Virus record (IMG/VR): IMGVR_UViG_2623620491_000014
Coordinates: 1-24,129 of that record
Length of the DNA: 24,129 nucleotides
Strand: one strand, 5' to 3'
From: a virus
Taxonomy: Duplodnaviria; Heunggongvirae; Uroviricota; Caudoviricetes
Part shown: one piece after another, positions 1,159-2,434 of the stretch
Layout of the letters: every line of letters begins with the position of its first letter
Numbering within the stretch: position 1 is the first letter of the stretch
Notes under the pieces: generated by a model
Told to the model about the DNA's origin: nothing
Database searches by the model: none
What the model saw: only the letters and a program-made list of their open reading frames with translations
Program-made: the position numbers and the translations under genes

Positions 1159-1329
1159 TCCACCTTAACAACTATCGAATAGCGAAGAGTCTTAAGTTTC
1201 TTATTTGATCGTAATATTAATATAATTATTCTTAGGAGGTTTTGTGATATACATCACATCAATGATTAATTATGAAAAAAAAACTTATTATGTGATAAAA
1301 TAAATTCTTTATCAAAATTAACAATATAA

Positions 1330-2394
1330 ATGAGTAAACTATATTCTATACAAATGCTTAGAGGTCTAGCAGCCGTTGCTGTTGTTATTGATCACGTCAC
1401 ACATTACATGCATCAATCATTTGATGGTGAATCGTGGTTGTATTCATCTAACATTTATAATGTAGGTGGTTTTGGTGTTGATCTATTCTTTTGTATTAGT
1501 GGATTCATCATGGTAATCACCACATACAACAGGCCAAGCGGGTTGTCACAATCGTTATCGTTCCTGAAAAAGAGATTTTTACGTATATACCCAACATATT
1601 GGTTTTATTGCATAATTACAATTACACTTCCATTAATTCTATATGGTAAAACGGATCTAATATCAAAATACGATTCACTGTTTTTATTACAAAGCTTTTT
1701 GCTTCTTCCAGCAAAAATTTCCGAAAAATCCTTTAGCCCATTTCTTGGGCAGGGTTGGACTTTGCAATATGAATTATATTTTTATATATTATTTGCGCTA
1801 ACAATTATCTTCTTCAAAGGATTCAAAGTTCCATTTTACTGCGCATTGTTAATGATATCGATGTTAATAATTTCACTCAACATAGATATTAATAGTTACG
1901 TAGATTATCTAGCGTCAAATACAATAATAATTGACTTTATTATGGGTATGCTTTCAGCATATTTTTATGTCAAGGTGAGCGCCAAGGGTATTTCAATAAA
2001 CATTAGAACTGGATTAGCATTGGTTGTTATTTTAATATCATTAATTTCATATATTATAATCAACAAATATCCAATTGATAGAATTATTGTTTTTGGGATT
2101 CCGTCTTTCTTCATCGTCACAATATTTTCGCTAATTAATGTTAACCCATGCAGCTTAACAAATAGAGTTATTATCCAGGCTGGAGAGGCATCATACACTA
2201 TTTATCTTGCGCATATGATTTTTATATGGACTGCAATAAAGTATTCTTATCTACTTAAATATCTTTATCCTGACGCAGCAATATTGCTTGTTTCTCTTGT
2301 TATATGCATTTTTTCATACTTGTTATATCTGTCTTTCGAAAAGCCGTTAACGAATAGACTGATGTCTATCCGAAAAAAACAAGCTCAACTCTAA
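1330..2394 (+). CDS. Acyltransferase family 3 integral membrane protein (O-antigen acetyltransferase-like serotype-conversion moron)
   Basis: 354-aa very hydrophobic ORF with N-terminal MLRGLAAVAVVIDHV and FFCISGF motifs typical of acyltransferase-3 (OafA/Oac-like) proteins. Very AT-rich codon usage unlike the rest of the window. Sits between int and tailspike, where P22-like phages carry O-antigen conversion genes. No obvious Shine-Dalgarno before the ATG at 1330; MLRGL at 1354 is an alternative start. Confidence 0.8.
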   Translation: MSKLYSIQMLRGLAAVAVVIDHVTHYMHQSFDGESWLYSSNIYNVGGFGVDLFFCISGFIMVITTYNRPSGLSQSLSFLKKRFLRIYPTYWFYCIITITLPLILYGKTDLISKYDSLFLLQSFLLLPAKISEKSFSPFLGQGWTLQYELYFYILFALTIIFFKGFKVPFYCALLMISMLIISLNIDINSYVDYLASNTIIIDFIMGMLSAYFYVKVSAKGISINIRTGLALVVILISLISYIIINKYPIDRIIVFGIPSFFIVTIFSLINVNPCSLTNRVIIQAGEASYTIYLAHMIFIWTAIKYSYLLKYLYPDAAILLVSLVICIFSYLLYLSFEKPLTNRLMSIRKKQAQL

Positions 2395-2402
2395 GCCATA
2401 AA

Positions 2403-2425
2403 AAGGAGCCTTTTCTTAAGGCTCC
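2403..2425. terminator. Hairpin between convergent acyltransferase and tailspike genes (possible bidirectional terminator)
   Basis: aggagcctt / ttctt / aaggctcct: 9-bp perfect inverted repeat with 5-nt loop, downstream of both stop codons (2392-2394 and 2435-2437). Flanking U-run is short (3 T on the minus-strand side). Confidence 0.4.
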
Positions 2426-2434
2426 TAAGATTAC

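Follow-up and report, generated by a model that had tools for sequence, protein, structure and literature searches.

The locus and its prophage setting

The DNA analysed here, a stretch of 24,129 nt that we call the window, is a P22/Sf6-like prophage at argW. It begins with intS, which is followed by an AT-rich acyltransferase-3 cassette (∼1192–2434) and a convergent tailspike gene (see Table 1 for the coordinates of all features). The same DNA is found in E. coli EC05 (assembly GCF_057125315.1), where the order is tRNA-Arg (argW), intS, acyltransferase gene and convergent tailspike gene. The similarity of the window to other intS prophages ends at ∼1183–1195, so the foreign cassette begins at ∼1192; for example, locus L156 diverges from the window after ...AGTCT, and its tailspike gene lies directly 3′ of int. 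The cassette is made up of a leader, the acyltransferase gene and a hairpin, with a GC content of 0.174 in the leader and 0.315 in the gene, as compared with 0.467 for the window. Among 5,426 complete E. coli genomes, EC05 is the only one that carries it.

Table 1. Features at the left end of the window (position 1 is the first nucleotide of the window)
Feature	Position	Strand	Details
intS-type tyrosine integrase, 385 aa	1–1158	+	Pfam Arm-DNA-bind_3, Phage_int_M, Phage_integrase
Spacer segment common to other intS prophages	1159–1191	+	cassette left border ∼1192
AT-rich leader/regulatory region, cassette-specific	1192–1329	+	17% GC
Candidate promoter P1 (TTCTTA, 17 nt, TATAAT)	1198–1226	+	relaxed consensus scan, 9/12, perfect -10; prediction
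Shine–Dalgarno sequence AGGAGGT	1234–1240	+	sequence
Inverted repeat TGTGAT-ATAC-ATCACA	1243–1258	.	perfect CRP core TGTGA-N6-TCACA; overlaps the mini-ORF start codon
Mini-ORF VIYITSMINYEKKTYYVIK, GTG start, 19 codons, TAA stop 1301–1303	1244–1303	+	open in 30/30 related loci
Candidate promoter P2 (ATGAAA, 18 nt, TG-n-TAAAAT, extended -10)	1272–1301	+	scan; prediction
A9 homopolymer, polymorphic hot spot	1275–1283	+	alleles A9, A8, GA8, GA9, GA7G
TAAATG junction, stop in the acyltransferase frame abutting the ATG	1327–1332	+	mini-ORF end in the 10-nt allele
AT3-only membrane acyltransferase, 354 aa	1330–2394	+	Pfam PF01757, E = 1.6e-34, residues 5–328
GC-rich hairpin between the convergent acyltransferase and tailspike genes	2404–2426	.	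9-bp stem and T-run
P22-type tailspike, 628 aa	2435–4321	-	Pfam Head_binding, E = 2.2e-67

The hairpin (AGGAGCCTTAAGAAAAGGCTCCT) is terminator-like in our scan on the minus strand only, where it lies 3′ of the tailspike stop codon; from its position 10 nt past the acyltransferase stop codon, it may have a role on the plus strand too. The annotated oac terminator of phage Sf6 occupies the equivalent position. A small palindrome (CTATCGAATAG, 1172–1183) is found just past the int stop codon and adjoins the GATC at 1157; it belongs to the segment that is common to many intS prophages, and is kept whichever cassette follows. We also considered the int–acyltransferase spacer as an attP with integrase arm sites, and rejected this reading: the tRNA-Arg gene and the attP core are upstream of int, and the sequence past ∼1192 is missing from other intS prophages.

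Two copies of the cassette are found ∼38 kb apart in the E. coli chromosome CP041520.1 (L154, 4290137–4294201, and L158, 4328227–4332246). Both have the GA7G allele of the A tract described below, one of them encodes a truncated acyltransferase (339 aa), and upstream of either copy only small ORFs are called, with no intact intS. These copies may be tandem or rearranged prophages.

The acyltransferase gene and its start

The acyltransferase is probably an O-antigen O-acetyltransferase. The ATG at 1330 is its true start, because the Pfam Acyl_transf_3 domain aligns from residue 5 and the N-terminus is conserved: the first eight codons (M[SN]KL[YN]SIQ) are retained in homologues of 59–67% identity, in which codon 9 is I or V, not M. 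A start at the second ATG (1354), which could be paired with a TTAACA-16-TATATT promoter, was rejected on account of these eight conserved upstream codons. Public annotations disagree on the start: they place the start of several RefSeq/GenBank proteins at the second ATG (346 aa) or even further into the gene (294–339 aa), and for related genes they use a TTG or an in-frame codon further upstream, with products of 352 aa and 385 aa.

There is not a single G from 1296 to 1331. The acyltransferase ATG therefore has no Shine–Dalgarno sequence, and no ATG, GTG or TTG lies in between.

Closer homologues of the enzyme (59–67% identity) come from Enterobacter and E. coli; searches of a one-genome-per-species collection and of IMG/VR returned only relatives of at most 36% identity. 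The genes of the 59–67% homologues are also without a Shine–Dalgarno sequence, have a different upstream region and lack the mini-ORF. Such a leader is thus no requirement of the enzyme family, and the different upstream region means that the homologues provide no comparative test of the mini-ORF. What these homologues share upstream is an element of ∼110 nt (GGTTTGCTCTCAACAAGTTACCGACATTAAGCCCGG…CCGGGCTTTCTTGTGAC) that is absent from the window (L003:2300–2465, L125:2340–2500, L127:2340–2500, L128:2395–2590 and L129:2340–2500). It ends in a terminator-like hairpin with a few compensatory changes (the hairpin is duplicated in L128). The loci that have it are from Enterobacter mori, E. ludwigii, E. 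coli and metagenomes, and their genomic surroundings differ considerably. Rfam has no match for this element, which might be a so far uncharacterised leader, a small RNA or an antitermination element that moves together with that cassette.

A Shine–Dalgarno sequence and a mini-ORF in the leader

The only GG dinucleotides of the leader sit in AGGAGG (1234–1239), which together with the next T forms an AGGAGGT match to the anti-Shine–Dalgarno sequence. The spacing to the GTG (1244–1246) that opens the mini-ORF is short, at 4 nt (four T's). Among 200,000 first-order Markov versions of the 138-nt leader, a fraction of 4.4e-4 had AGGAGG with a start codon 3–9 nt downstream; AGGAGG plus GTG is very unlikely to occur by chance in a leader of 17% GC. 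None of the 30 related loci and none of the five tract alleles interrupts the mini-ORF. Features that are looked for in translational coupling are found here: the mini-ORF has its own Shine–Dalgarno sequence, and the start of the downstream gene has neither one of its own nor a competing start codon.

An earlier note on this DNA, made from the sequence alone, had described most of this anatomy, and its description holds: AGGAGG at 1234–1239, GTG at 1244, a 19-codon ORF running to the TAA at 1301–1303 and A9 at 1275–1283 are all where it placed them, the tgtgat inverted pair that it put at about 1243–1258 and the third copy at about 1291 lie at 1243–1248/1253–1258 and 1291–1296, and the acyltransferase ATG at 1330 indeed has no Shine–Dalgarno sequence (zero G in 1296–1331).

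No terminator-like site was found in the spacer (1159–1329) by the terminator scan, and no stable or alternative RNA structure at 1230–1350, where the minimum free energy equals that of shuffled sequences (z = -0.07). No Rfam family matched 1050–1500 at E up to 10, and a known RNA element in the leader was rejected on these two grounds, the empty Rfam search and the unremarkable fold. Scanning viral and metagenome contigs with exact or gapped patterns revealed no copies of the leader, a protein-guided metagenome scan found no further copies, and a sensitive blastn search against phages and plasmids returned chance AT-rich matches only (E ∼0.003–6).

Variation of the A tract among related loci

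The A9 tract is the sole homopolymer of at least 8 nt in the 24-kb window. For comparison we collected, by exact-protein look-ups, 30 related loci in which the leader is present; their sources are E. coli, E. marmotae and metagenomes. The 138-nt leader is constant in these 30 loci apart from the tract and one C/T difference at 1200. There are three haplotypes, with 13 differing sites within the gene (1.2% of sites), and the sample is too shallow for the invariance of the leader across them to be proof of constraint.

The tract itself varies. Its commonest allele is GA8 (9 nt; 16 out of 30 loci), followed by GA7G (9 nt; six loci), A9 (9 nt; four loci, the window being a fifth copy), A8 (8 nt; three loci) and GA9 (10 nt; one locus, L140). 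The earlier note had proposed that tract length be compared among related prophages, and the comparison does reveal a natural length polymorphism: 8 nt in three, 9 nt in 26 and 10 nt in one of the 30 loci. Counting the window, the 9-nt length is kept in 27 out of 31 copies. The pure run of A's is A9 in five copies (the window and four of the 30 loci), A8 in 19 and A7 in six, and in one copy A9 stands behind a G; in 22 of the 30 loci, G has replaced A at the ends, which leaves an uninterrupted A8 or A7.

All indels of the 1.28-kb cassette region (1159–2434) are in this tract. It has undergone four mutational events in 9 nt, as compared with 20 in 1276 nt overall (Poisson P = 1.5e-5), namely the only indels of the cassette and two of its 18 substitutions. 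The A7 and T6 runs inside the acyltransferase gene never vary. The two changes in length happened on separate haplotypes, one from A9 to A8 and the other from GA8 to GA9. Both tract substitutions are non-synonymous in the mini-ORF, and as they are the only two substitutions in the mini-ORF, they are too few for an informative comparison of synonymous and non-synonymous changes. The four loci whose tract is not 9 nt long were all obtained from metagenome or Logan assemblies and none from isolate genomes (runs SRR28288581 and SRR27390246, and the runs behind ERZ28597143 and ERZ27263296), so that assembly error is not fully excluded for them; the tract is 9 nt long in 11 out of 11 NCBI assemblies.

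Tract length determines where the mini-ORF ends. With a 9-nt tract it has 19 codons and stops at the TAA at 1301–1303, 26 nt before the acyltransferase ATG; with 8 nt it has 16 codons (…EKKLIM) and stops at a TGA 34 nt before the ATG; and with 10 nt (L140) it has 28 codons and stops at the TAA at 1327–1329, 0 nt from the ATG (TAAATG). Abutment of stop and start is thus absent from the window allele, with its 26-nt gap, and is seen solely in the 10-nt allele of L140. As the interval between stop and ATG has no G, the acyltransferase ATG would be the first start codon for a released ribosome in every allele. In the frame of the mini-ORF the A9 run reads GAA-AAA-AAA-A, which places an A_AAA_AAA heptamer in frame. 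At least seven A's are left in every allele, in frame as A_AAA_AAA (a -1 slippery heptamer), and the shifted frame ends at TAAATG. Runs of nine A's are of the length at which transcriptional slippage shows in many bacteria (PMC1088944).

Promoter candidates and a CRP-type palindrome

Two plus-strand promoter candidates were predicted in the leader. P1 would start transcription at ∼1233, which would put the Shine–Dalgarno sequence and the mini-ORF on the mRNA. P2 would start it at ∼1308; the A tract lies within its -35/spacer region, and the third TGTGAT overlaps its TG motif. Promoter-like matches are frequent in this AT-rich DNA, with 14 found as compared with 8.8 expected from shuffled sequences. 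The best promoter-like match of the spacer is on the minus strand (1315–1287; TTGATA-17-CATAAT, 10/12), with a candidate start at or inside the T9 run opposite the A9 tract. Transcription from there would yield an RNA antisense to the mini-ORF and the 3′ end of int, possibly with reiterative transcription.

The inverted repeat over the mini-ORF start codon is the one match to TGTGA-N6-TCACA in the 24-kb window (0.05 expected), and the T and A on its flanks are those preferred in CRP sites. Its two halves (TGTGAT at 1243–1248 and ATCACA at 1253–1258) and the third copy (TGTGAT at 1291–1296) make up three of the 14 copies in the window within 54 bp. As RNA, the palindrome has no significant added stability. 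Its centre would be at -57.5, -47.5 or +17.5 relative to the predicted starts, none of which is a canonical activating position; a placement at -62.5 would need a weak TAAATT -10. That the tgtgat inverted pair is a perfect CRP-type site, and that the tract also lies in the -35/spacer region of P2, had been missed in the earlier reading.

Comparison with known systems

The closest counterpart of the module is oac of phage Sf6, a gene for serotype conversion and superinfection exclusion. As in the window, Sf6 has an intS-type integrase at argW, a spacer of ∼155–170 nt, an AT3-only acyltransferase, a hairpin and a convergent tailspike gene; its record annotates a ‘putative oac promoter’ in the spacer and places attP upstream of int. 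By analogy, the cassette of the window is presumably expressed in the lysogen from a promoter of its own in the spacer. The Sf6 spacer sequence, however, is unrelated to that of the window and has no AGGAGG-led mini-ORF, A-run or TGTGA palindrome, and Sf6 Oac shares 26% identity with the window acyltransferase over 200 residues (E = 6e-7), which makes it a member of the same superfamily, not an orthologue. Judged by this arrangement, the module is an Sf6-oac-like serotype-conversion cassette with a different AT3 enzyme.

The leader can be compared with several mechanisms of expression control. The nearest case of a repeat placed in this way appears to be H. influenzae lex2A/lex2B, where a downstream glycosyltransferase is governed by a repeat within a short ORF ahead of it. 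Repeat-mediated phase variation of surface-glycan genes (tetranucleotide repeats in H. influenzae oafA and lex2A, homopolymers in Neisseria) likewise involves a slippage-prone repeat in a translated frame that varies among isolates (PMC6479036, PMC9558356), but here the repeat is in a separate upstream mini-ORF, is 7–9 nt long and has mostly one length. Translational coupling by termination–reinitiation also has an upstream ORF with a strong Shine–Dalgarno sequence and a downstream start that lacks one, with no competing start; here, however, the stop of the common alleles is 26 nt off the ATG and an abutting TAAATG is found in the rare 10-nt allele only. Slippage or -1 frameshifting on A-runs (e.g. 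T. thermophilus dnaX, IS elements and Shigella mxiE) is similar in having A9 or A_AAA_AAA in a translated frame and an alternative frame with a defined end, and differs in that no stimulatory element is evident in the window, the commonest alleles are A8 or A7, and the product of the shift would be a termination position rather than a new protein. Finally, Dam/OxyR control of gtr and oafB resembles the case studied here in that a prophage-borne O-antigen modification is involved and heterogeneous expression is the suspected outcome, but the defining GATC/OxyR array is absent, with two GATC sites only nearby. In its regulatory aspect, the leader resembles repeat-mediated phase variation, coupling and A-run recoding, but a defining feature of each is missing or not clearly present.

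Interpretation of the leader

Our tentative reading, which we favour without rating it as probable, is that an O-antigen acyltransferase cassette, acquired horizontally, sits at the position of Sf6 oac and is expressed through this leader, which contains a ribosome-loading ORF whose coupling to the acyltransferase would be reset by slippage on the A-run. Transcripts would come from a promoter just upstream (candidate P1, ∼1233) or from int read-through, and the strong AGGAGGT would put ribosomes on the 19-codon leader ORF. After termination, these ribosomes would be freed onto a G-free, unstructured, AU-rich spacer in which the first start is the AUG of the acyltransferase, so that translation of the leader may feed translation of the enzyme via termination–reinitiation or local unmasking. 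The A-run would act as a slippage hot spot, where a change of one base shifts the leader stop (34, 26 or 0 nt from the AUG) and would alter the tightness of coupling between leader and acyltransferase; events at the RNA level, either slippage of transcription on A9 or a -1 ribosomal frameshift on A_AAA_AAA, may in principle produce the same change of frame. The sequences establish the anatomy, the non-random Shine–Dalgarno sequence, the natural polymorphism of tract length and its effects on the reading frame. Translation of the leader ORF, its influence on the enzyme and an active use of the length changes, as opposed to their being tolerated, are inferred.

In favour of the leader-ORF reading, the scan found no terminator separating int from the acyltransferase gene, and other AT3 O-acetyltransferases are phase-variable by other routes (PMC9558356). 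Both promoter candidates argue against it in some measure: if P1 is the promoter, the Shine–Dalgarno sequence would be at the extreme 5′ end of the mRNA, and if P2 is, the mini-ORF would be off the main transcript. The homologues that manage without a mini-ORF also count against it. They speak for a neutral hot spot, in which the tract is just the fastest-mutating homopolymer, the 19-codon ORF is a by-product of AT-richness or the relic of an old gene start, and expression is independent of them; we consider this possible but somewhat doubtful. Homopolymers are intrinsically hypermutable, and the tract is the only run of its length in the window. Substitutions erode it from both ends and the 9-nt length predominates, an open frame of 19 codons is expected with a probability of ∼0.15 in this composition (our estimate), and neither folding nor Rfam pointed to an RNA structure or family. 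What neutrality accounts for poorly is the Shine–Dalgarno sequence with its start codon, so improbable by chance, together with the coherent arrangement of three possible stops and a G-free run to the ATG, and the constancy of the rest of the leader over three haplotypes (though sampling is shallow). A further alternative keeps a role for the tract and makes the mini-ORF irrelevant: if P2 is a real promoter, slippage would turn its 18-bp spacing into one of 17 or 19 bp and thereby serve as a volume control on transcription, much as homopolymer promoter switches of the classical type do. With its extended -10, P2 is among the two best plus-strand matches that precede the gene, and the polymorphic tract lies inside it, such that A8 would give the optimal 17-bp spacer. 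We nevertheless think this explanation unlikely, in view of the abundance of promoter-like matches in this DNA, the poor -35 match of P2 (which is worse in GA8, the commonest allele) and the highly non-random AGGAGG and GTG, which it leaves unexplained.

The palindrome may have a function of its own as a cAMP-CRP site, which would be compatible with the other models. It could activate a downstream promoter or, with P1, block transcription or occlude the mini-ORF start at ∼+17, and the third TGTGAT could then be an extra half-site. Its perfect core with preferred flanks, its single occurrence in the window, the clustering of the three TGTGAT copies and the insignificant RNA hairpin, which favours a role at the DNA level, all suggest such a site; the predicted centres are, however, non-canonical, the one better placement depends on a weak -10, and conservation of the site is uninformative as the whole leader is invariant. 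On balance, a CRP site seems to us a possibility of doubtful standing. Far less probable is control by classical leader-peptide attenuation or by a Dam/OxyR epigenetic switch as in the gtr/oafB operons, despite the presence of a leader ORF and of two GATC sites near the leader (1157 and 1207). The gtr signature, as reportedly defined by Broadbent et al. in 2010, consists of four GATC sites that lie in paired OxyR half-sites, but here there are just these two, one of them in the int stop region that is common to prophages without the cassette. For attenuation there is no terminator or alternative hairpin between leader and gene, and the mini-ORF peptide has no run of regulatory codons. Both are largely refuted because their defining structures are missing, even though Salmonella oafB and gtr are documented cases of epigenetic phase variation (PMC9558356).

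With respect to the two mechanisms proposed in the earlier note, leader-peptide control in the sense of attenuation is thus not supported, given the lack of a terminator, of RNA structure (z = -0.07) and of an Rfam match, and slippage-mediated phase variation is borne out in part: the length polymorphism and the orderly shifts of the stop agree with it, but the tract is short for a contingency locus and is eroded. With the possible stops at 34, 26 or 0 nt from an ATG devoid of a Shine–Dalgarno sequence, a slippage-sensitive leader is a reasonable reading, whereas a selected switch is unproven. The dominance of the 9-nt length and the erosion of the run by G are the opposite of what selection for mutability predicts, and by our estimates neither an open -1 frame of 15–17 codons (∼0.2) nor an ATG-adjacent stop (∼0.1) is improbable in AT-rich DNA. 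That the A-run is a used switch, in which a +1 change would bring termination of the leader to UAAAUG (via DNA slippage, RNA polymerase slippage or -1 frameshifting) and leave lysogens mixed in O-antigen acetylation, is in our view improbable.

Implications

The construct needed is compact (∼100 nt) and the 8-, 9- and 10-nt alleles are natural, which makes the leader directly testable. If the tract is neutral, it is a caution against taking every polymorphic homopolymer beside a surface gene for a contingency locus.

How prophages modify the O antigen determines the serotype, immune recognition and the susceptibility to other phages, and to our knowledge the expression of such cassettes is known in detail only for the gtr and oafB loci under Dam/OxyR control. 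If the tract were a used switch, lysogens would be heritably or stochastically mixed, and hence mixed in the exposure of the receptor of their own tailspike; this would be a ‘coupling-distance’ phase variation, which is not known to have been described for prophage O-antigen modification genes. If the mini-ORF sets translation of the AT3 enzyme, it would be a simple and portable way for an acquired AT-rich gene to gain ribosomes in a new host, and possibly a new route to population heterogeneity in surface acetylation.
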